A stretch of 11,725 bases of DNA from Sulfurimonadaceae bacterium (GCA_041548245.1 JBFESZ010000069.1:1-11725), one strand, 5' to 3'; counted from the stretch's first letter, positions 1 to 11,725 are shown. Numbers and translations: made by a program. The notes: generated by a model from the letters alone, not told the origin.

Positions 1-477
1 AAACGGGGACAACTGAAGGATGGATCTACAGATGAGAAGCTCAAAGCTGAGGCTCTGGAGCGTATCAAGAGAAAAGGGGCGCTTCTTTATGACTTGGCAA
101 AGCCTTATCAGGAGCATGAACGCTACATCAATGCGATGGTCCTGGGTTCACAAGACCTTACAAAAGGCGAGGGTGTTAATCTGCTGAGCGTACATGCGAG
201 TAAAGGTCTGGAATATAAAGAGGTCTACGTGATCGATCTTATGGATGGACGTTTTCCAAATCGAAAACTGATGAACAAAGGGGGCGGTGGTATAGAAGAA
301 GAACGCCGTCTTTTTTATGTCTCGGTAACACGGGCCAAAGATATCTTATATCTGAGCTATGCTAAGAATGACAAAATAAAAAAGATCGACTTCGTACCGT
401 CTCAGTTTCTGTATGAAGCAGGATTGATCCAAAAAGACGAGAACTATAGGAAAATGGTAGAAAAAGAGGGTGAATAG
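1..477 (+). CDS. UvrD/Rep-family (SF1A) ATP-dependent DNA helicase, C-terminal part (5' end outside window)
   Basis: Frame 1 is open from base 1 (KRGQLKDGSTDEKLKAEALERIKRKGALLYDLAKPY...) to TAG at 475-477, so the ORF-track start at 94 is internal. It contains SF1A motif V (LLSVHASKGLEY), GRFP, and motif VI (EEERRLFYVSVTRAKDILYLS). Confidence 0.93.
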   Translation, partial: KRGQLKDGSTDEKLKAEALERIKRKGALLYDLAKPYQEHERYINAMVLGSQDLTKGEGVNLLSVHASKGLEYKEVYVIDLMDGRFPNRKLMNKGGGGIEEERRLFYVSVTRAKDILYLSYAKNDKIKKIDFVPSQFLYEAGLIQKDENYRKMVEKEGE

Positions 478-514: not shown

Positions 515-1756
515 TCAGTTTTTAGCTGCTTTACCCATATCCCACATCGGCAAGAAGATCCCAAGTGCCATTAAGAGTACCATTGCCGCGATAAGTGCCA
601 ACATAATAGGTTCTATGGCTTCTGATAATCCATCAATGATAGCATCAAACTTCATCTTGTAATATTCAGTGACCTTTTCCATCATAGCATCAAGTTGACC
701 ACTTGATTCACCAGCGGCTACCATCTGGATGATCATATTCTCAAACAGACCGGTGTCTTTTAGACCCTGATGTAACGTATTACCTTTCTCGACGGCACCT
801 CTTACAGTTTGAAGTTTCTCTTTTAGAGGAAGATTATCGATCATATCAATAGCGGCCTCAAGTGAGTCTGCAATGGGGATACCCGCATGTACCAAAGCAG
901 AGAAAACAAGCATAAAACGATTCAAGGTTGCGAACTTAATAAGGTTTTTAATGAGCATGGTCTTAAGCAAGATTTCATGAAACCTAAACCTGACATTATA
1001 ATAATGGTTGATAGCAAAACGCGCTGTCAAGAATACAGCAATGATGGTTCCAAGCACATACATACCATATTGATTTATACCTACCTCCAATGCAAGCAAT
1101 ACCTGGGTTGGAAGCGGTAGCTCAGCATTGAGTTGTTCGAATATTGCTTTGAACTCAGGTACGACGTATGAAATAAGAATGGTAAAAGCGATGGCCATAG
1201 CGATCATAACGTTTCGAGGATAGGCCATAGCTTTTTTAAACTTGATGAAGTTTCTTCTAATCTCTTCCAGCATGTCGGCAAGCTTGTAGAGTGCTTCGGC
1301 CATGTTACCTGTTTTTTCTCCCAGCTGGATCATGGCTAAGGTCAAATTTCCCATCTCATATCTGAAGTTATTGATGGACTGAGACATACTGAGACCTGAG
1401 TTGATATCTTCGGCTATCCGGTTAAATACCTCTTTGAGTCTTTGGTCATCAGTAGAGTTGGCGATCTCATGCAGGGTGTCATGAATAGAGATACCTGCAT
1501 TGGTCATAACCGCCATTTGCCGGATACCGGCAATAAGACTGTCTTGTTTGATCTTTTTCTTTTTAAAGTTTTTGGTAATACCTTCTTTAAAAGCCTTAAG
1601 TTGTTGATCTAAGGGTGGAGAACTCTCAATTACTTTCAGGACAACACCGGGGAATTTAACTTTTGCAAGATAATGCGCTTCTTTCTTATCTTCTGCATGC
1701 AGACCGTGAGCTTCGCGTTTACCTTTGTTAATAACTGTAACTGAATAATATTTCAT
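515..1756 (-). CDS. ctsF: Type II secretion/type IV pilus inner-membrane platform protein (GspF/PilC/MshG family; CtsF-like)
   Basis: 413 aa with two T2SSF repeats (RQMAVMTNAGISI...GEKTGNMAEALYKLA...KKAMAYP; LVHAGIPIADSL...GESSGQLDAMMEKVTEYY...IEPIML...GIFLPMWDM) and three hydrophobic TM segments. It lies directly downstream of the GspE-type ATPase with an ATGA overlap at 1753-1756. Confidence 0.95.
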   Translation of the reverse strand: MKYYSVTVINKGKREAHGLHAEDKKEAHYLAKVKFPGVVLKVIESSPPLDQQLKAFKEGITKNFKKKKIKQDSLIAGIRQMAVMTNAGISIHDTLHEIANSTDDQRLKEVFNRIAEDINSGLSMSQSINNFRYEMGNLTLAMIQLGEKTGNMAEALYKLADMLEEIRRNFIKFKKAMAYPRNVMIAMAIAFTILISYVVPEFKAIFEQLNAELPLPTQVLLALEVGINQYGMYVLGTIIAVFLTARFAINHYYNVRFRFHEILLKTMLIKNLIKFATLNRFMLVFSALVHAGIPIADSLEAAIDMIDNLPLKEKLQTVRGAVEKGNTLHQGLKDTGLFENMIIQMVAAGESSGQLDAMMEKVTEYYKMKFDAIIDGLSEAIEPIMLALIAAMVLLMALGIFLPMWDMGKAAKN

Positions 1757-3495
1757 TGTTTTGCCACCCTTAAAATTTCATCAAATGTAGTGATACCTTC
1801 GGCAGCTTTTTGCATGCCGTTTTTGAACATATTTTGAAAACCCTCTTTGGTCGCCTGTTCTAAAAGTTCTACTTTTGAAGCTTCTTTCGCGATCATACTG
1901 GAAAGTTCTTCAGAAATTGGAAGTACTTCACAGATCATCTCACGGCCTTGGTAACCAGTTCCTGAACACTCTCTACATCCTGCACCTATCTTGAAAATCG
2001 CATTTTCAGGAATATATGATTTATACTCTTCTACAAGGTTATCCGGTAGTTTGGCATCCTCTTTGCAGTGAGGACATATCTTTCGAACCAAACGCTGTGC
2101 TTGAATAGCAACGACAGCACCACTGATCAGATAGGGCTCGATACCCATATCTGCCATCCTTGGAATGGCACTGACAGCATCATTGGTATGCAAAGTAGAG
2201 ATAACTAAGTGTCCGGTCAAGGCCGCTTTAATAGCGATCTCAAGTGTCTCATGGTCACGAATCTCACCGATCATGATCTTGTCAGGATCCTGGCGAAGAA
2301 TAGAACGCAGCGCATCTGCAAAAGAGAGGCCGACCTTTGGGTTGACCTGTACCTGTTGGATAAGGTTCATCCTATATTCGACAGGATCTTCAACAGTAAT
2401 CACTTTTTCTGTGACACTTCTAAGCTCATTAAGTGCACCGTAAAGGGTTGTCGTCTTACCCGAACCGGTAGGGCCGGTGACTAATATGACGCCAAACGGT
2501 GCTTTAAGCGCAGTATGGAGCTTTTGATAGCTGGCTGCATCCATGCCTGCTTCTTCGAGTTTTACCAGCGCTTTGGTCTTGTCAAGTACACGCATAACAA
2601 TTGATTCACCATACAGGATCGGTAGAGTAGATATACGAAAGTCAAACTCTTTATTACCAACATTGGCTGAAAAACGTCCATCTTGAGGTTTGCGTTTTTC
2701 GGCGATATCCAGATTGGCAAGAAGTTTTAGTCGTGAAGCCATAGGCGGATAGATGTCTTTGTCAAAGATGAAGATCTCGGTCAGTGCACCATCAATACGT
2801 CCACGTACAACACAGTTCTTTTCTGTAGGTTCGATGTGGATATCCGATGATCGCGAATGAATGGTTGTCTTTAGCACAACATCAATCAATTGTAAGATGG
2901 ATGAAGCCTCTTGTTGTTCTTCTGCACTGCCGATAGAATTAAGCTCACTTCGGATGTTGGCTACAAGTTCTTTAACGCTGTCCTTAAGCTCCATCTTCAT
3001 CAAGTAGGCTTCGATCTGCTTGCTTGTAGCTACGGCAATACTTAAAGGCTTACGCGGGTATATTCGCTGTAGCATCTCTTGGGCATCAACATTTAACGGA
3101 TCCGAGAATACAACGGTTACATGCATTTCATTTTGAGAAATTGGTATGGCGACAGCACGTTTAAGTTGATTGTACGGGGCCTTTTCTGCGAGACGGTAAT
3201 CTAAATCGACTGAGTCCAGATCTATGAAGGGATAGTTCAATACCTCGGCTAAATATTTTAAGACATCATGCTCAGATAAAAAACTATACTGATGAATCAC
3301 AGAAAGCTCATATCGGCCTACTCTGATCTGCTCAACGATGAAGCGCTTCACAAAATTTGCGGAAACAGCACCGACTCTCGTCAGAGTTTCAAGAAGAGCA
3401 TCAGGTTTTACACCTCTGGATGTGAGTCTTTCTATCTGTTGAGTAGTGATATGGTTTTTATCTAATAAGTCTTGTGTAATACGATCCAGTTGCAA
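1753..3495 (-). CDS. ctsE: GspE/PilB/MshE-family assembly ATPase (CtsE-like)
   Basis: Contains SDIHIEP, PQDGRF, Walker A GPTGSGKTTT, Asp box ITVEDPVE, Walker B LRQDPDKIMIGEIRD, His box ALTGHLVISTLHTND and tetracysteine Zn motif CPHC...CREC. I place the start at TTG 3495, which has AGGAG (3508-3504) 8 nt upstream; the ORF track starts at TTG 3513. Confidence 0.96.
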   Translation of the reverse strand: MQLDRITQDLLDKNHITTQQIERLTSRGVKPDALLETLTRVGAVSANFVKRFIVEQIRVGRYELSVIHQYSFLSEHDVLKYLAEVLNYPFIDLDSVDLDYRLAEKAPYNQLKRAVAIPISQNEMHVTVVFSDPLNVDAQEMLQRIYPRKPLSIAVATSKQIEAYLMKMELKDSVKELVANIRSELNSIGSAEEQQEASSILQLIDVVLKTTIHSRSSDIHIEPTEKNCVVRGRIDGALTEIFIFDKDIYPPMASRLKLLANLDIAEKRKPQDGRFSANVGNKEFDFRISTLPILYGESIVMRVLDKTKALVKLEEAGMDAASYQKLHTALKAPFGVILVTGPTGSGKTTTLYGALNELRSVTEKVITVEDPVEYRMNLIQQVQVNPKVGLSFADALRSILRQDPDKIMIGEIRDHETLEIAIKAALTGHLVISTLHTNDAVSAIPRMADMGIEPYLISGAVVAIQAQRLVRKICPHCKEDAKLPDNLVEEYKSYIPENAIFKIGAGCRECSGTGYQGREMICEVLPISEELSSMIAKEASKVELLEQATKEGFQNMFKNGMQKAAEGITTFDEILRVAKQ

Positions 3496-3503
3496 TTGAA
3501 CTA

Positions 3504-3508
3504 CTCCT
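3504..3508 (-). promoter_or_regulatory. Shine-Dalgarno AGGAG for the assembly ATPase, overlapping the upstream TAG stop
   Basis: The minus strand reads TGG-TAGGAG-TAGTTCAA-TTG-CAA-CTG-GAT; AGGAG is 8 nt before the in-frame TTG at 3495. Confidence 0.65.
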
Positions 3509-4055
3509 ACCAATAAGTGTGCCTATGAGTCATTATTGTATCATAATATTCTTCTATAACCATCTTCTTGGAATGGTTGCCGTTCTTGATATAAAGCTTG
3601 TATGAGACCTTCTCATTATGCTTGTCAAAAAACACATAATGGTTTTGTTTGCGATCATGTCGGCTCTTAGCATAGAGCTCAAATACGGTTGATAAGACAT
3701 GGTCTGTTGTCGGAAGTTTTAATTCGCTCAAACCATATCCATCTAGTAAAGCATGATAAAGAAGTTTTTTTTGCATTAAAATAACTGAAAAGTAGGCGGC
3801 ATTGCTACGGGCTTCTTGTGTTTTTTTAAGCAAAGATATAGGAATGGCCAAACGGTCTATATAGTCTGAATGAAGACAAGAGAATGCATACAAGGATACA
3901 AACTCTTCATCTTTCCGGTATTGTTGAAAGACTTTGAGGCCTTCTTTACATGCTTCTTCATATTGTTTGTCTTGATACAGATGGTACAGTGAGGTCTTGA
4001 TGTCCGCAAAAGCAAAGTTGAACAAAAGACAACTGATCAATACTAGAATTCTCAT
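3507..4055 (-). CDS. Exported hypothetical protein with helical/TPR-like N-terminal half and beta-rich C-terminus
   Basis: 182 aa with a Sec-type signal MRILVLISCLLFNFAFA|D. The segment LYQDKQYEEACKEG...YAFSCL resembles a TPR helix pair with Cys36/Cys60. It has an ATGA overlap with the upstream gene and its stop carries the SD of ctsE, so it is embedded in the operon. No function is recognisable. Confidence 0.85.
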   Translation of the reverse strand: MRILVLISCLLFNFAFADIKTSLYHLYQDKQYEEACKEGLKVFQQYRKDEEFVSLYAFSCLHSDYIDRLAIPISLLKKTQEARSNAAYFSVILMQKKLLYHALLDGYGLSELKLPTTDHVLSTVFELYAKSRHDRKQNHYVFFDKHNEKVSYKLYIKNGNHSKKMVIEEYYDTIMTHRHTYW

Positions 4056-5681: not shown

Positions 5682-7364
5682 CTACTCTTTTTCAGCTTCA
5701 ATTGTTGTTGCGTCTGTAGCTGCTTTCTTTTCTGCCATTCGTTCTTTACGTTCAGCTTCCAGTTCAGCATTTTTTGCATCGAGTTCAGCCAGATCATCCT
5801 GACTTTCTGAATGAATAAAGGCCTGAGAGTCAAGCTGCTCTTCATTAAGACCGGTATAGCCCAATTCGCTTAATGATATAGTCTGTTTTCCATCTTTAAT
5901 AATATGTGGTTCGATAACAATAACAAGCTCTTCGATAGTGTTGATCTTCTCTTGGTACTTGAATAACCAGCCAAGAATAGGAACATCACCCAGTAAAGGG
6001 ATTTTGTTTTCATTGATACTATCCTTTGACTGAATAAGACCACCAAGAATAACACGCTCACCATCTCGAACAGAGACGACAGATGAGAGTTGTCGACGAT
6101 TTAGATCCGGTGGAACATCACGTGTCGCTCCATCTTCATCTGAGGCGATGTCCTGACGTGTCTCGCTTAATGATGGATTTACCTTTAATGTAATGAGTCC
6201 ATTATCATCGATTTCAGGTGTTATATCAAGCAGAATACCTGCAAAAACAGAACTAACGACATCATTTTCTAAGGTGGAAGCTACACCACCGCCAGAACTT
6301 TGCTGCTGGGTTGTCTGTTGTATCTTATAAAAGTACTCACTACCAACACTGATGAGTGCCGGTTGATTGTTTAGTGTCATTATCTTAGGATTGGATATGG
6401 CTTTTACATTCCCTTGTGTTTTAAGGAACTTTATTACCTCATTGAGTGAACCTGACCCGATAATATTAATGGCACTGGAATTAATTGCACCGATTCGTCC
6501 ATATTCTGTAATAGCACCATCTTCTACCTCACTAACATTGTCTGTTAAAAGATTATTAGTGGTGATCTGAAAGTTTTGAAGAGCATACAGTTGTGACCAG
6601 TCAACCCCAGTTTCATGTCTATTATCAAGCGTAACACCCAATAGTTTGACATCGATAAGGACTTGTGCCTTTGCCTTTCTTTGAAGCTCTTGCAGGTAAG
6701 TTGAAAGACGTTCCATCTGTTTTGGTGTTGCCGAAACAGTCACAAGGCCTGCAGTTTTGTTGATGATTGGGGCATCTGCACTGTAATCATCTTCGGGACG
6801 GTTTAATACCGATTGAAACTCTAGGTCAAGGTTTTCCCAAAAAGCGACTTCATCCGTAGTCTCGATTTCAATACCGCTTTCAGATTCATTTGATGATGAC
6901 TGTGATGTGTCTGCAGCACCTGTGGTACTACCACCCTGAACACCAGATTTACTGCTAAGCGTGACATTTGTTGTACCGGTGCTTTTACGATTGGTTATGA
7001 TATAGTCAATATCAAATGTTTTCGTTACAAGGTAAGAGATATGCAAGATATTGTTCTCAAGTTTGTAAAAGAGATTGTTCTCTTTCAGAACCAAGTCGAG
7101 GACTTCGTCAATAGTCAAGTTCTTGAGATTAGTCTTGTTAAGCTCTTTTGATAATAACTTTTCCGCTTCCGGATCGGTTACGATAACACTGAACGAACAT
7201 TCATCACTAAGTTGGTCAACAAACTCCGTAATCTGAGTTCCTTTGATGGAAGAGATTGAAAAGAGCTGATACGTACAGTCAGCACTTAAAGATGATGTCA
7301 TTAGCGTTGCCGCTGCAACACTGCTTATGAGAGTGTTCTTTAATGGTTTTAGTGTTAGTTTCAT
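5682..7364 (-). CDS. mshL: Outer-membrane secretin, MSHA-type (MshL / CtsD-like)
   Basis: 560 aa: signal peptide, N-terminal STN-like domain, TKTFDIDYI followed by a Ser/Gly/Thr-rich loop and FWENL (MshL-like N domain), GLVTVSATPKQMERL, and a secretin core (QVLIDVKLL...GVDW...GNVKAISNPKIMTLNNQPALISVG...GILLDITPEI...VSVRDGERVILGGLI...KIPLLGDVPILGWLF...ELVIVIEPHII). Confidence 0.95.
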   Translation of the reverse strand: MKLTLKPLKNTLISSVAAATLMTSSLSADCTYQLFSISSIKGTQITEFVDQLSDECSFSVIVTDPEAEKLLSKELNKTNLKNLTIDEVLDLVLKENNLFYKLENNILHISYLVTKTFDIDYIITNRKSTGTTNVTLSSKSGVQGGSTTGAADTSQSSSNESESGIEIETTDEVAFWENLDLEFQSVLNRPEDDYSADAPIINKTAGLVTVSATPKQMERLSTYLQELQRKAKAQVLIDVKLLGVTLDNRHETGVDWSQLYALQNFQITTNNLLTDNVSEVEDGAITEYGRIGAINSSAINIIGSGSLNEVIKFLKTQGNVKAISNPKIMTLNNQPALISVGSEYFYKIQQTTQQQSSGGGVASTLENDVVSSVFAGILLDITPEIDDNGLITLKVNPSLSETRQDIASDEDGATRDVPPDLNRRQLSSVVSVRDGERVILGGLIQSKDSINENKIPLLGDVPILGWLFKYQEKINTIEELVIVIEPHIIKDGKQTISLSELGYTGLNEEQLDSQAFIHSESQDDLAELDAKNAELEAERKERMAEKKAATDATTIEAEKE

Positions 7365-7372
7365 GTCTTTCC

Positions 7373-7822
7373 CTATTTTGTTGAGATGTTGAGATTTTTA
7401 CTTTTTTGTGCAATGAAAAGTTTGATTTTCTTACTCTTTCTTTCTAGCACAACATAGTCACTTTGTATTTGAGAAAGTTTATATCCTCTAATAAGCTCAT
7501 TTTCTTTAACCCACTTACCACTGATCAAGGCAGAAGAATTCAGTACGATCTGCAAAGTTAAAGGTGACTTATCCATATCTTTCTTGGTAACGTCCTTCTT
7601 TGTCACAGTTGAAGGCGCTTTTGCATCTTTTTTACCAGAAGCAGATTTTTTCGGTTCTTCTTTAATAACGATGAACGGGCTTTTAAGTCTCGCCAAAGTA
7701 CTACTTTGAAGGCCGGTTCTAGCCGGCTTTATTTCATCTATCTTCTGGTCAATCCAGCTCATATTTGCATCCGCTTGCAACAAGCCTGCAAACAATGTAA
7801 GTATTAATAGTTTTGTTTTCAA
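7373..7822 (-). CDS. MshK/PilP-like exported secretin-associated protein (positional equivalent of CtsR)
   Basis: Signal peptide (M)KTKLLILTLFAGLLQA, a SPF motif, a Lys-rich linker, and a C-terminal beta domain LTLQIVLNSSALISGKWVKENELIRGYKLSQIQSDYVVLER of the MshK/PilP/GspC-HR type. It lies between pilO-like and secretin genes. I prefer TTG 7822 as start (TTGA overlap with the upstream stop, GGGGGA upstream); the ORF track uses ATG 7837. Confidence 0.72.
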   Translation of the reverse strand: MKTKLLILTLFAGLLQADANMSWIDQKIDEIKPARTGLQSSTLARLKSPFIVIKEEPKKSASGKKDAKAPSTVTKKDVTKKDMDKSPLTLQIVLNSSALISGKWVKENELIRGYKLSQIQSDYVVLERKSKKIKLFIAQKSKNLNISTK

Positions 7823-8445
7823 TACGTGATCCCCCATACAGAGATTTTTAACTCACTGTCAATTTTACTTGCTGCGATTAAATCGACATTATGAATATCG
7901 ACTACGAGAAAGCTCTGCTCCAGTGAATTTATAAACTTCATCGTTCTGTGAAAGTCTCCTGTGACTTTCAGCTCAATATCAAGGACATGTCCAAAAGTAC
8001 TCTTGTCAGCTGAAAACTCATTTGACAAGTAATGAAGCTGAACACCGTATTTTTTTGCATTTTCTGAGATAGAATCAATGAATTCCCCCCAGGCCTGTTC
8101 ATCATAGTACAGACTGGAAATCTGTTCAATCTTAAACTTGATGTATTCAGATTGGTCTTTAAGCGACACAAAATCCTGCTTCAGTTTAAGTGTTTGTGCT
8201 TTCAGTCCTTCTATCTTGCTTTGAGGGTTCCACTTAAGAAAGTTCTGATCATCAGCGATCTTCTTCTCAATGGCTTTAGTCTCGGCAACAGTCTTGTTGT
8301 AGCCGATTTCAGCACTGTCCCAAAAAAGTACATAAGACAAGCCAATTAAGGCAGCGGCCACCATGACATAAATAGCATAAATGTCAGTTTGCTTTTTTTC
8401 TGCAAAGGATTTGTCAATATCACCTAATATATCTTCTAAAGTCAT
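7819..8445 (-). CDS. pilO: PilO/MshJ-like inner-membrane alignment protein
   Basis: 208 aa: one N-terminal TM (IYAIYVMVAAALIGLSYVLFW), a coiled coil, then a PilO/GspM-type ferredoxin-like domain (FIDSISENAKKYGVQL...IELKVTGDFHRTMKFINSLEQSFLVVDIHNV...LKISVWG). ATGA overlap with the upstream gene. Confidence 0.8.
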   Translation of the reverse strand: MTLEDILGDIDKSFAEKKQTDIYAIYVMVAAALIGLSYVLFWDSAEIGYNKTVAETKAIEKKIADDQNFLKWNPQSKIEGLKAQTLKLKQDFVSLKDQSEYIKFKIEQISSLYYDEQAWGEFIDSISENAKKYGVQLHYLSNEFSADKSTFGHVLDIELKVTGDFHRTMKFINSLEQSFLVVDIHNVDLIAASKIDSELKISVWGITY

Positions 8446-9977
8446 TTGAGAACCACCTTTAACTCACTTGAATATAACTTTCCTTCACTGTCAAATTCGA
8501 TCTTATTGAAAGAAAATTTGTATTGTGAGGATTTTGTCTTCGTGTACCATTCGATAAGGTTTGTGATGCTCTTATCTTTTTTGGAAACCAAGTTTAACGT
8601 AAACATCTTCTCATTTGTTTTTGAGTCTTGGGAATAGCTGGCTTTAGAAAGTTGGACCTTGTATTTATTAAGGTCTTTTGTAAGATCGCTTATCCTACTG
8701 GCTTTCATCGGGTAGTTGACTTTGACATCATGTATCTTGGTCAATACGGCTTTCTTCTCATCCAAGGCTTTATTTTCATTTTCGACAAGTGTCTTTACCT
8801 TGTTCATCTCTTCTGTGTGGTGATTGACCTGTTTTTCTCTGTCCTGACGTTGTATGTGCAGTTCAGTGTACTCTGACGTCAGAGCAAGCTTTTTAATGTT
8901 TTCTATACCATCAAGAGTCCAGTAGACACCCGGGTAGATCATGGCAACAACGGCTGCCGCTGCTGCTGTTAGAATAAGTTGTCCGCTCGCACGTTTAACA
9001 AATGCAGGCGGTCGATGAAAACGTGTGAAGTTACATGTATACTTGTCTTCAGCTTCGAGTTGCGCAGTAAGATGCATGAGCAGGTGCATCTGGTCGATGT
9101 ACCACTCTTCTGTCTCAAATCCATAATTGAAGTTGAAGTCACTGGAGTCCAAGCCCAAGTATGTCTGTGAATATTCATCCATTCCGACAATTGCACCTAC
9201 TTCAGAACCGATATAGACTTTGTCGATTCTGTCAAGTTCAAACGCACGTTTAGAATAGGTCATAACATCATTGATGTGTAGGAATACTTCGCCAAAAAGT
9301 TTGATCAGATATTGTTGGTTTTCACTTTGAGAACTTCTTAGCCCCTCTTCGGATAAAAGTTTTGTGAAAGCTGAAAGTTCGATCTGCTCACCCAATAGTT
9401 CACAATATCGGTCATGCATCTGAGAAAATGAGTATTTTAACGATTTAGTATAAAGAAACTCTCTGTCATCATACAGTGTTAAAAATGCATCATCCGATTG
9501 GAAGTATATAAAACAGTGTGTACCATTCTCTTCGATGATCTCTTTTTTATACAAGGTTCTTAATAAAAGTGGTGCAGGGATAATAGTGTCTATATATTTT
9601 ATCTGTTCGATACTTTGCGCAAACGTCTCATTAAGAGTTAGCGGGTCGACTACAAAGACATGAAAACTTTTATTTCCTTCTTCTCCGCTGTCAGGTGCTT
9701 CTACGTAATCGATCTGATATTCAATTGCCATATCAAGACCAAGCTCTTCATAGATCTTGGTCTCAATTACATCTCTGACATCTTCATCAGGTATGTTTTT
9801 ACTGACATCAATGACGGTTGTGATGAAATCTTGCGTCTTTAGATATGAGATAGCATACTGATCTTTGATATATTGAGGTTTGTCAGCGGTCTTGATCTGT
9901 GTTGTTGTCCCCGTATAATAGGAATTATTATATGGATCTGCAGATATTGTACTGGAGAAGGCTTGCTTCTGTTTCAT
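8442..9977 (-). CDS. PilM-PilN fusion protein (MshI/GspL-like alignment-complex subunit)
   Basis: 511 aa. Residues ~1-315 show PilM-like actin-fold patterns (IETKIYEELGL...YQIDY; IDTIIPAPLLL; HCFIYF...LTLYDDREFLYTKSL; IDKVYIGS). These are followed by one TM (res ~334-353, nt 8978-8919), a coiled coil, and a PilN-like C-terminus (ISDLTKDLNKYKVQL...FTLNLVS...ITNLIE...YSSELKVVLK). SD AGGA at 9988-9985; positioned immediately before pilO. Confidence 0.75.
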   Translation of the reverse strand: MKQKQAFSSTISADPYNNSYYTGTTTQIKTADKPQYIKDQYAISYLKTQDFITTVIDVSKNIPDEDVRDVIETKIYEELGLDMAIEYQIDYVEAPDSGEEGNKSFHVFVVDPLTLNETFAQSIEQIKYIDTIIPAPLLLRTLYKKEIIEENGTHCFIYFQSDDAFLTLYDDREFLYTKSLKYSFSQMHDRYCELLGEQIELSAFTKLLSEEGLRSSQSENQQYLIKLFGEVFLHINDVMTYSKRAFELDRIDKVYIGSEVGAIVGMDEYSQTYLGLDSSDFNFNYGFETEEWYIDQMHLLMHLTAQLEAEDKYTCNFTRFHRPPAFVKRASGQLILTAAAAAVVAMIYPGVYWTLDGIENIKKLALTSEYTELHIQRQDREKQVNHHTEEMNKVKTLVENENKALDEKKAVLTKIHDVKVNYPMKASRISDLTKDLNKYKVQLSKASYSQDSKTNEKMFTLNLVSKKDKSITNLIEWYTKTKSSQYKFSFNKIEFDSEGKLYSSELKVVLK

Positions 9978-11275
9978 TCTTTATTCCTAGCTACATAATT
10001 TAAAACTACCATTCCACAAAAAGCATCTTGTTTATAAAACTCAGCTCTATACATTTTTTGCTCGTTGTCAAGCGAAAAACGTTTTAACAGTGAAGACTCA
10101 GCAATTTTTATTCCCAATTCATTATTGTACCTGGGATCAGTGAAACCAATCACATTCAAGCGATAACCCGCAGGTGCATTGAAAACTATATCGGACATTA
10201 TTTTAACTTCTGAAGGTAAATCAACAGATTTAACATTTCCGTCGACGATAGCCTCAAAAGGACCTTTGCATTCTTGCATAACAAAAGGTGTCGTACGAAG
10301 ATGCGAAATCTTTTTATGTCCTATATATAAATCGATAAAGCCATTGCCTTCAACCACGCCGCCTAAGGGGTGGGAGAAGTGCAAGTCGTTATCTTTCGAT
10401 TGTAGCGGAATATATCTTAAATTTTTTCTTAAGATGTCTAAATTAAGGGAGAAATTGCCATTAATGACCATATTTCCATTACTTTTAGTGATATTTTTAA
10501 CATTTTCTGAGTCCAGTTCAAAGTCTCTTTGATAATCAATGCCCATTATCTCCATAAAAGCTTCGATGGCCCGAAGCTGATAATAGACCTTTAGTGCAGT
10601 GTTTTTAAGCTCTTTGCTTGTCTCTATAGCAAAGGCAGGTTTATTATTGTTTATCGCAAAATAAGTTAATGAATGTTGCATCTCATTCTTTTTCTTTTTT
10701 GTCTTGGTATTTCTTACATTGAAACTGTGATGTTCTTGCAAAAGGTGGTTGTTAAGTTTTTCACTGACTTGCTCGGCGATACAGGCCAGATCTCCATAGC
10801 TGCTGTTGTAATCAAGTTTCTTTTGATCTATTACACAGGTCTGTCCCCATGCCCCAGGGTTAAATATGGTATTTGTGTATTTTTCGCGAAAAAAACCATG
10901 CCCGTCATGAAGGTTAAGAATAAGAGAGACATCTTCTTCGAGAATCAATGATTTGATCTCTTCGATAAGATTGATATCCGGATCGTGCTGCTCTATTTTC
11001 GAGAACTTGCGGTTAAGGTCTCCGTTAATACCTCGGCTGTATTGCAGGATGCTTTCTCTGTTTGTATTGGGAACAACCCATAGGTTTCCGCTATTTATAG
11101 TATAGTGCTGAGCTAGAATGGAAGCGGCAAAATATCCTCCGGGTTCATTTCCGTGTATTCCTGCAAATATCAAGAGAGTAGGACCTTGTGTCTTTCCGTT
11201 AAGTTTATAAATATCAAATTTGCCCTGGGCAAAGAGAGATGAGAATAGGAGCAATAATAGGGCGTATAATCTCAT
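9974..11275 (-). CDS. pgp1: M99 (M14-like) zinc D,L-carboxypeptidase, Pgp1/Csd4 family, acting on peptidoglycan stem peptides
   Basis: 433 aa with a signal peptide, GPTLLIFAGIHGNEPGG (H41, E44), VVPN, R81-G..GDLNRKF, LNLHDG (H123), NPGAWGQ, LTYFA and AFAIETSK (E218). Spacing matches H. pylori Csd4 Q46/E49/R86/N93/R94/H128/E222 as I recall them. The C-terminal beta domains include YRLNVIGF and YRAEFYK...FCGMVVL. Orthologue versus paralogue is not resolvable here. Confidence 0.88.
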   Translation of the reverse strand: MRLYALLLLLFSSLFAQGKFDIYKLNGKTQGPTLLIFAGIHGNEPGGYFAASILAQHYTINSGNLWVVPNTNRESILQYSRGINGDLNRKFSKIEQHDPDINLIEEIKSLILEEDVSLILNLHDGHGFFREKYTNTIFNPGAWGQTCVIDQKKLDYNSSYGDLACIAEQVSEKLNNHLLQEHHSFNVRNTKTKKKKNEMQHSLTYFAINNNKPAFAIETSKELKNTALKVYYQLRAIEAFMEIMGIDYQRDFELDSENVKNITKSNGNMVINGNFSLNLDILRKNLRYIPLQSKDNDLHFSHPLGGVVEGNGFIDLYIGHKKISHLRTTPFVMQECKGPFEAIVDGNVKSVDLPSEVKIMSDIVFNAPAGYRLNVIGFTDPRYNNELGIKIAESSLLKRFSLDNEQKMYRAEFYKQDAFCGMVVLNYVARNKE

Positions 11276-11725
11276 CTATTTCTCAGCCAAGATATAAAAC
11301 TTGTCGGAATGTAAATGCACATACAACTCTTTATGACCGCTGAATTGAAAACTGTTTGAACTGTACTCTTCTTTAAAGCTTATCAAGTAGACATCTTCAT
11401 GCTGTTGCATAGGGTAGGGAAGAATGTTAATATCACTAAACAAGATCTGTTTATACTCATCTTTTTGAAATATACGTTGTTTATAATCTTTAAACTTTGA
11501 ATAGTCCAAGCCGTCTATACGCTTGAAACCTTTATCGTAAAAACTCATGTAGGTATCAAAGTCATTTGTCTTCCAAGCCTTTCTCCAGCTGTAGAGTTGG
11601 CTTAAAAGCTGCATCAATTTTTTTTTGCTGACTTCAGGGTAGGGCTTTTGATCAATGTAGACCAGGGCCTCTTTGAAGTCAATTCGGCTTTCTATGTCTT
11701 GAAGGTTGTTATTGTTGATCGCAAT
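11276..11725 (-). CDS. pgp2: Pgp2/Csd6-like L,D-carboxypeptidase (YkuD-type catalytic domain plus C-terminal NTF2-like domain), 5' end outside window
   Basis: The frame is open from the window edge for 149 sense codons (IAINNNNLQDIESRIDFKEALVYIDQKPYPEVSKKKLMQLLSQLYSWRKAWKTNDFDTYMSFY...). 'IAINN' fits the residues that follow the catalytic GC of YkuD domains, but the Cys itself would lie just outside the window. W..AW...D...Y.SFY...F, F..YK.RIF, ISFKEEYSS..F...G.KELYV and ILAEK match the Csd6/Pgp2 NTF2-like C-terminal domain. Confidence 0.82.
   Translation of the reverse strand: MAINNNNLQDIESRIDFKEALVYIDQKPYPEVSKKKLMQLLSQLYSWRKAWKTNDFDTYMSFYDKGFKRIDGLDYSKFKDYKQRIFQKDEYKQILFSDINILPYPMQQHEDVYLISFKEEYSSNSFQFSGHKELYVHLHSDKFYILAEK
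11618..11626 (-). repeat. A9 homopolymer tract in the pgp2-like CDS
   Basis: T9 on the plus strand at 11618-11626 (coding AGC AAA AAA AAA TTG ATG); the longest homopolymer I found by eye in the window. Confidence 0.8.

Follow-up and report, generated by a model that had tools for sequence, protein, structure and literature searches.

A constrained promoter-like motif inside an M99 peptidase gene and the conserved linkage of peptidoglycan-trimming and MSHA-type pilus genes in Sulfurimonadaceae

When two peptidoglycan-trimming genes run without a gap into a pilus cluster, does the arrangement mark a functional module or an inherited gene order? This question is raised by an 11,725-nucleotide (nt) stretch of DNA from Sulfurimonadaceae bacterium (GCA_041548245.1 JBFESZ010000069.1:1-11725), called the window below, in which a csd6/pgp2-like gene and an M99 gene of the csd4/pgp1 type directly precede a cluster of the mannose-sensitive haemagglutinin (MSHA) type. 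An earlier note on this DNA had read the pair as a dedicated wall-remodelling unit at the head of the pilus operon. The link between the M99 gene and the pilus genes is real and conserved in Sulfurimonadaceae, but era, rplI, and argG are linked at least as firmly, and a dedicated wall-opening module is not supported. What is new is a constrained DNA motif inside the M99 gene, which is the one unusual feature of the locus; the enzymes are members of known families, and pgp2-pgp1 adjacency has been published.

The minus strand of the window is one unbroken co-directional gene run, and the plus strand carries the end of a helicase gene at 1-477. Gene families were assigned by Pfam and NCBIfam profile searches with per-family score cutoffs. 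The features on which the question turns are the following.

11276..11725, minus strand: csd6/pgp2-like L,D-carboxypeptidase gene, 3' part; Pfam Cds6_C NTF2-like domain, 128.6 bits (cutoff 27); the open reading frame (ORF) is open at the window end
9974..11275, minus strand: M99 D,L-carboxypeptidase gene (Csd4/Pgp1-like), 433 amino acids (aa); Peptidase_M99 (PF17033) 235.6 bits and M99_C (PF17129) 65.3 bits (cutoffs 27)
10399..10421, minus strand: conserved DNA motif embedded in M99, codons ~285-292, found by synonymous constraint; candidate activator site plus -10 box
8442..9977, minus strand: MshI-like gene, 511 aa, by fold search; PilM-like actin-fold domain, long helix, and small C-terminal alpha/beta domain

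Read directly on the minus strand, the TAG of the csd6-like gene abuts the ATG of M99 (TAGATG, 11278-11273), and the TGA of M99 overlaps the ATG of mshI (ATGA, 9977-9974), preceded by AGG AAT AAA GAA. Both junctions are as the earlier note described them, and so is the order of the genes, with csd6, M99, and then mshI placing the pair side by side in pathway order. A conserved terminator at 11233-11219 (minus strand), where a GC-rich hairpin is followed by a T-run 40 nt into M99, was considered and rejected, the hairpin being confined to the window lineage, with 1 of the 22 inspected loci having it. An M99-mshI fusion in six loci was likewise ruled out, by an in-frame TAG and a 9-nt spacer. 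A -1 frameshift at the A-run was also weighed and set aside as speculative.

Relatives were collected by scanning one genome per species with the M99 alignment A1 (two peptide patterns) and keeping the best 80 of 280, at 46-100% identity; the 80 loci are almost all labelled Sulfurimonadaceae, Sulfurimonas, or Sulfuricurvum. The linkage, which the earlier note had put up for checking, is kept throughout this set: csd6 lies directly upstream of M99 in 78 of the 80 loci, in the order era-csd6-M99, the remaining two beginning at M99, while mshI lies directly downstream in 77/80, the remaining three ending inside M99. It persists down to 46% M99 identity, the rest of the msh cluster follows in the window order as far as the contigs extend, and no M99 gene stands in another context among the 80 loci. 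One assembly, WFPU01, has two loci (L030 and L063) with M99 proteins 64% identical and mshI after each, which suggests either a mixed bin or a duplication of the locus; neither gene is an unlinked housekeeping copy.

The upstream side of the string is provided by a close relative, locus L002, which carries on the same strand flaG, fliD, fliS, a small ORF, argG, a ferredoxin-thioredoxin-reductase (FTR)/rhodanese gene, rplI, hslV, hslU, era, and csd6. The order rplI-hslV-hslU-era-csd6 is found in 46 loci, and the order lacking hslVU in 22 (21 plus 1). Since argG, rplI, and era keep their places in the string as strictly as the pair keeps its link to the pilus genes, synteny does not discriminate function here. 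As observations on the string itself, hslV and hslU are absent from 22 of the 78 loci reaching upstream of M99, for example the Sulfuricurvum-type loci L014, L016-L019, and L021-L025, where era follows rplI directly with a gap of -35 to +9 nt. Where both genes are present, hslU appears to start ~49 nt inside hslV (median -49, n=48; L002 6729-6777), an overlap that is protein-conserved in tblastn.

Stop codons were located in each locus and the gap lengths then measured, with the following result for the junctions around the pair.

era to csd6: n=76, -14 to +28 nt, median -7; none above 40 nt
csd6 to M99: n=76, -14 to +26 nt, median +1
M99 to mshI: n=67, -29 to +13 nt, median +8

All junctions from rplI through mshG have a median gap of 11 nt or less, and the nearest gaps above 40 nt in the window lineage lie before rplI (63), the FTR/rhodanese gene (109), and argG (84). 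The earlier note had pointed to the lack of intergenic room for a promoter or terminator. The lack of room stands at both junctions; as the mark of a module it falls, because the same tightness runs from rplI to mshG. As the era to csd6 junction is equally tight, an absence of room for a promoter cannot mark csd6 as the head, and the pair does not head a distinct unit.

Adjacency of pgp1 and pgp2 is already on record in published work. Homologues of pgp1 and pgp2 lie within 300 bp of each other in Nitratiruptor sp. SB155, Nautilia profundicola, a Desulfococcus, and Persephonella marina, and pgp2 was in fact identified through the closeness of its homologue to a pgp1 homologue; in Campylobacter jejuni the two genes are apart (cjj81176_1344 and cjj81176_0915), as the earlier note had it (Frirdich et al. 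2014, PMC3961634). The two genes thus adjoin here as they do in those four taxa, in contrast to C. jejuni and Helicobacter pylori, where pgp1/csd4 and pgp2/csd6 are separate. The excerpts of that paper describing the neighbourhoods make no mention of era upstream or of pilus genes downstream, and those of PMC12454360, which concern pgp1, pgp2, and Sulfurimonas, hold no passage on synteny or operons.

What sets the locus apart lies within the M99 coding sequence. Synonymous variability was scored at codon level at conserved amino-acid positions, normalised per amino acid, and scanned in 12-codon windows over 17 genes of the string (25-77 sequences each, 1,475 scan windows). The five lowest values all come from codons 277-300 of M99, where z falls to -5.3 (stretch ~280-293), and nothing comparable occurs inside the other 16 genes. 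The next-lowest values are found at gene ends (orf182 3', -2.3; rplI 5', -2.2; mshE 3', -1.4; mshJ 3', -1.4), where constraint is expected from ribosome-binding sites and overlaps.

On the coding strand of the window, the constrained stretch reads TTTAAG (10421-10416), ATATA, TTCCGC (10410-10405), and TACAAT (10404-10399), and its family-wide form is TTTAAG-5 bp-TTCCGM-TAnAAT. The codons behind it are nearly fixed: Leu286 is TTA in 72/74 sequences, Ile289 is ATT in 60/61, and Pro290 is CCG in 71/74, CCG accounting for 18% (1,123/6,240) of conserved Pro codons overall. Motif bases are kept even where the residue changes, as with AGT/AGC/AGA at codon 287, CTA/ATA at 291, and AAA/CAA/GAA at 292. 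The exact 16-mer pattern occurs in 57/80 loci, once in each and always at the M99 site. A relaxed layout, TTAAG-5-TT-(4 to 6)-TAnAAT, is found in 74/80 loci, including that of S. indica NW8N (L074), and at no other site on the same strand in 1.32 Mb, with ~2 expected in shuffles; it has one occurrence on the opposite strand.

Several identities for the motif were tried and rejected. An RNA element was set aside for want of an Rfam match at the site and of a conserved fold (RNAalifold -0.27 kcal/mol, 2 pairs), a repeated uptake-type sequence on account of the single occurrence per locus, and a sigma-28 promoter because the spacing misfits the TAAAGTTT-N11-GCCGAT-type sites found upstream of flaG in the same loci. 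The latter sites can be described for their own sake: a TAAAGTTT-N11-GCCGAT-type sequence stands upstream of flaG at ~1010-1130 (plus strand) of L002 and also in L003, L006, L008, and L013, and several loci have a TGGAAC-N-ATGCTT-type sequence further upstream of flaG. By their consensus, we take the former to be sigma-28-like and the latter to be sigma-54-like.

The layout of the motif recalls a known class of activator site. HP1043 (HsrA) is an essential H. pylori regulator, with 8% of its sites intragenic; in its site a strongly conserved TTTAAG is separated by a 5-bp spacer from a second hexamer that is conserved less well, and at the promoters it activates, the site lies on the coding strand, directly upstream of the -10 box (Pelliciari et al. 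2017, PMC5253667). Like these HP1043 (HsrA)/CosR-type sites of H. pylori sigma-80 promoters, the M99 motif has a perfect TTTAAG, a 5-bp spacer, and a second hexamer, and abuts a -10-like TAnAAT on the coding strand; unlike them, it is set inside coding sequence. The likeness to an HP1043/HsrA activator site with its -10 box is only a lead. That the msh genes have in this motif a regulated promoter of their own inside M99, with a start ~415 nt before mshI, has in our estimation about an even chance of being right. Its promoter-like form hints at the very kind of start site, inside pgp1 and driving the pilus genes, that the earlier note had set against its own proposal.

Judged by its relatives, the M99 gene is one predicted to encode a tri- to dipeptide D,L-carboxypeptidase of the Csd4/Pgp1 type. 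Residues 25-428 align with H. pylori Csd4 chains 4wcm, 4wck, and 4q6m (E ~1e-72), so that the alignment is near full-length, and both M99 Pfam domains as well as the metal/catalytic positions of Csd4 and C. jejuni Pgp1 are kept. H41, E44, H123, and E218 are invariant in the 13 sequences of alignment A1, and they align with Gln46, Glu49, His128, and Glu222 of Csd4, which we take to be its metal ligands and catalytic glutamate. The first ligand differs, His41 replacing the Gln of native Csd4 (4wck), and the best-scoring chain, 4wcm, also has His, being presumably the Q46H variant of Csd4. The closest named homologues of the M99 protein are from Sulfurimonas and Sulfuricurvum; H. pylori csd4 itself is, by our assumption, HP1075.

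For the csd6-like gene, the window offers the last 149 codons, the catalytic YkuD half lying outside it, and the full gene was taken from L002 (9035-10000, 321 aa), which shows 4 differences from the window over 726 aligned bases. It has both YkuD (51.5 bits) and Cds6_C (126.7 bits) domains, and its protein aligns with the PDB structures of Csd6 (4xzz, E 6.4e-76) and Pgp2 (6xj6, E 7.6e-64). As in H. pylori Csd6 (HP0518) and C. jejuni Pgp2, an N-terminal domain precedes a catalytic domain of the YkuD fold and an NTF2-like C-terminal domain. The HG...C motif aligns with those of both enzymes, its His and Cys falling at His-160 and Cys-176 of Csd6, the catalytic residues (Kim et al. 2015, PMC4599014). 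The spacer between His-Gly and Cys is 13 residues, one below the stated range for Csd6/Pgp2 enzymes, against 14 in Csd6. On this likeness, the gene product is predicted to be a tetra- to tripeptide L,D-carboxypeptidase of the Csd6/Pgp2 type. Judged by eye, the csd6-like (L002) and M99 proteins both begin with a basic and then a hydrophobic segment of the export type. Their sequences give nothing that would separate the two enzymes from the shape-determining Csd4 and Csd6.

Position adds to this picture. In H. pylori, csd6 (HPG27_477, HP0518) belongs to an operon headed by HPG27_473, and its complementation was driven from the promoter upstream of that gene (Sycuro et al. 2013, PMC3844677). It is the fifth gene of that operon, and the csd6-like gene occupies the same slot here, after rplI, hslV, hslU, and era. 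In both organisms, the gene stands at the tail of an operon-like string, with the difference that here M99 is directly downstream. The shared operon position therefore suggests a housekeeping copy in its inherited place. Literature searches on HP0518 together with HP0517, and on HP0515-0517, found no papers.

The gene directly after M99 was identified through its fold. Neither Pfam nor NCBIfam recognises the 511-aa MshI-like ORF, even with the threshold relaxed to E<=10. An AlphaFold2 model built from alignment A3, with 27 orthologues from related loci, has a mean predicted local distance difference test (pLDDT) score of 84.9 and comprises alpha/beta domains at 9-310, a helix at 333-433, and a small alpha/beta domain at 442-510. 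Foldseek ranks PilM of Pseudomonas aeruginosa first among PDB entries (5eou, E 1.2e-13), followed by 5eoy, 5eox, 3jc8 (the Myxococcus machine), and 2ych (Thermus thermophilus PilM-PilN, E 3.8e-11); FtsA, the EpsL/GspL cytoplasmic domain, and MreB come after PilM. The modelled structure thus bears out a PilM-PilN-like protein at fold level. With the Pfam and NCBIfam assignments of the pair and of the MSHA-type cluster, the gene identities put forward in the earlier note are confirmed.

The remaining features of the window, in the order in which the string is read, are these.

7819..8445, minus strand: MshJ/PilO-like gene, 208 aa; Pfam PilO 27.1 bits (cutoff 22)
7373..7837, minus strand: small ORF in the MshK position, 154 aa, without family (no Pfam/NCBIfam match at E<=0.01; sub-threshold matches only at E<=10); position kept in related loci
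5682..7364, minus strand: MshL-type secretin, 560 aa; NCBIfam TIGR02519 pilus_MshL 274.7 bits (cutoff 250.2) and Pfam Secretin 164.9 bits
4872..5681, minus strand: P-loop ATPase in the MshM position, 269 aa; Pfam AAA_22 45.6 bits
4052..4879, minus strand: ORF in the MshN position, 275 aa, with weak TPR-like matches; ANAPC3 22.5 bits, under its cutoff of 27.2
3507..4055, minus strand: orf182, 182 aa, without family (no Pfam/NCBIfam match at E<=0.01; one sub-threshold match at E<=10); position kept in related loci by synteny
1753..3513, minus strand: MshE-type assembly ATPase with MshEN domain, 586 aa; Pfam T2SSE 437.8 bits and MshEN 55.2 bits
515..1756, minus strand: MshG/PilC-type platform protein, 413 aa; Pfam T2SSF 180.3 bits
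1..477, plus strand: 3' end of a UvrD/Rep/PcrA-type helicase gene, convergent, which ends the co-directional string; Pfam UvrD_C 80.9 bits

The helicase gene end also has a sub-threshold Rfam match at 270-365 (plus strand) to RF03531 (35.1 bits, gathering score 65.2, E 0.012), a family described as a Clostridioides small RNA "included into helicase gene". The match probably reflects conserved helicase coding sequence.

The cluster resembles the Vibrio cholerae MSHA secretory operon (mshIJKLMNEGF) in its MshL, its MshE with MshEN, its T2SSF and PilO-like proteins, its PilM-PilN-like first gene, and the msh order. It differs in that pilin genes and an mshF-like gene are lacking ahead of the convergent helicase gene, and in that the proteins in the MshI, MshK, and MshN positions match no curated family above cutoff. 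At the locus, no pilin genes of the mshBACD type were found, the mshG-like gene being the last ORF ahead of the helicase gene. The order secretin, P-loop ATPase, small ORFs, GspE-type, and GspF-type is presumably parallel to that of C. jejuni ctsD-P-X-E-F, a comparison of gene order only. Among the matches listed in a search of the literature on Sulfurimonas type IV pili and natural transformation, no mention of this locus was found, and PMC10046745 and PMC4398505 yielded nothing that bears on it. In the divergent lineage L057, mshE and mshG are missing from the locus after orf182, and the msh cluster is therefore breakable, with mshE and mshG detachable from it. There orf182 is followed, at 17467-21284, by a 354-aa ORF in the opposite orientation, after which come genes for a DnaJ-domain protein and a MerR-family regulator and then a HipA-like gene.

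How, then, is the linkage best explained? The account we favour, with a confidence somewhat above even, is that the pair are ordinary helical-shape peptidoglycan trimmers in an inherited gap-free string, and that the msh genes are served by read-through together with a promoter embedded in M99. The string rplI-(hslVU)-era-csd6-M99-mshI-J-K-L-M-N-orf-E-G would have been inherited across Sulfurimonadaceae, csd6 retaining its H. pylori-like slot at the tail of a housekeeping operon, with M99 adjoining it and the MSHA-type cluster following without a spacer. Transcription from upstream promoters probably reads through into the msh genes, which may additionally have their own regulated promoter in M99. 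A control region embedded in this way would lock the msh cluster to M99 over evolution without the enzymes serving the pilus.

A number of points weigh against this account. The second hexamer of the M99 motif, TTCCG(C/A), shares only TT with the tTTAAg of HP1043 sites, whose central TTAA matters for binding in H. pylori (Zannoni et al. 2021, PMC8345958), and because of this departure the motif is not filed as a member of the HP1043 class. No second copy of the layout that could define a promoter class was found in the loci, and a leader of ~415 nt would be long. The motif is degraded in L057 and L068, yet M99-mshI adjacency is kept there, and therefore the motif cannot be the sole reason for the linkage. 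On the side of the enzymes, the housekeeping role of the pair is drawn from position and similarity, and the names rplI, hslV, hslU, and era for HPG27_473-476 (HP0514-0517), on which the comparison of slots turns, are our assumption. Overlaps of the ATGA type, such as that between M99 and mshI (18 loci with a -4 gap), are known from translationally coupled genes, and this one agrees with M99 and mshI belonging to a real operon. A functional module, too, would be expected to show strict linkage across the family. Finally, the linkage sample is the best 80 of 280 relatives, from one family.

The rival that survives best dispenses with the embedded promoter. The msh genes would be transcribed purely by read-through, their promoters lying ahead of rplI, argG, or the flagellar genes and nowhere else, and the motif would have another role, for instance as a regulator roadblock, an RNA-level signal, or a translational pause; we hold this to be possible, though doubtful. 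It agrees with the lack of intergenic space from rplI to mshG, with the restriction of the hairpin at 11233-11219 to the window lineage (1/22 loci), and with the distance of the second hexamer from the published HP1043 consensus. Consensus scans of the window are uninformative, returning 30 promoter-like matches against 31.8 in shuffles, a count that suits read-through as well, and 12 terminator-like matches against 7.9. Nevertheless, the constant spacing of a coding-strand TAnAAT, arranged as at HP1043-activated promoters, is hard to place under read-through, as are the absence of conserved RNA structure at the motif and of comparable internal constraint in the other 16 genes.

The reading of the earlier note itself, namely that the pair is a dedicated wall-remodelling unit trimming stem peptides and lowering cross-linking for the MshL secretin and pilus, or else co-regulating shape with piliation and DNA uptake, is in our judgement unlikely. 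It can draw on the side-by-side placement of the two genes in the order of the pathway, with spacers of zero or below, on linkage in 77/80 loci down to 46% M99 identity, and on two enzymes that look catalytically intact and exported, and ExeA/GspA offers a precedent for peptidoglycan-dependent secretin assembly. Nevertheless, era to csd6 and all junctions further upstream are as tight, and the unrelated argG, rplI, and era are equally conserved. The csd6 gene stands in its H. pylori operon slot, the pair is adjacent in taxa reported, in the excerpts cited above, without a pilus context, and a candidate promoter lies between the M99 start and the msh genes, while by sequence the enzymes are indistinguishable from the shape-determining Csd4 and Csd6. 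A database search also found no M99 fusion proteins above 758 aa (759-2165 aa, E<=1e-5), which is weak evidence. A broader version for Sulfurimonadaceae, in which the Csd6/M99 pair, besides or instead of shaping, readies the sacculus for MshL, an HsrA/CosR-type site in M99 ties expression together, and the linkage is kept for function, appears improbable.

Equally improbable is that the msh cluster was a later insertion beside the housekeeping string in the family ancestor, its linkage a frozen accident without regulatory tie. In its favour, the string ends abruptly at the convergent helicase gene, L057 lacks mshE and mshG at the locus and has unrelated genes after orf182, and the placement of the V. 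cholerae msh locus next to mreB has been interpreted as an insertion. Against it, the GC content is even across the junction (0.36-0.39 over the M99/msh region), no repeats, tRNA genes, or integrase genes were seen, although no search aimed at them was made, and the conserved motif embedded in M99 favours a regulatory tie.

If the account of ordinary shape enzymes in an inherited string is true, the locus is a cautionary case, zero-spacer junctions and family synteny in compact Campylobacterota genomes not indicating a functional module by themselves. The pair would then be the Sulfurimonadaceae version of known shape enzymes, and a promoter-like site in the coding sequence would explain why the pilus cluster has stayed joined to a cell-shape gene. 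We know of nothing on the regulation of MSHA/Cts-type machines in sulfur oxidisers from the environment, and the 23-nt element in M99 would offer a handle on it.

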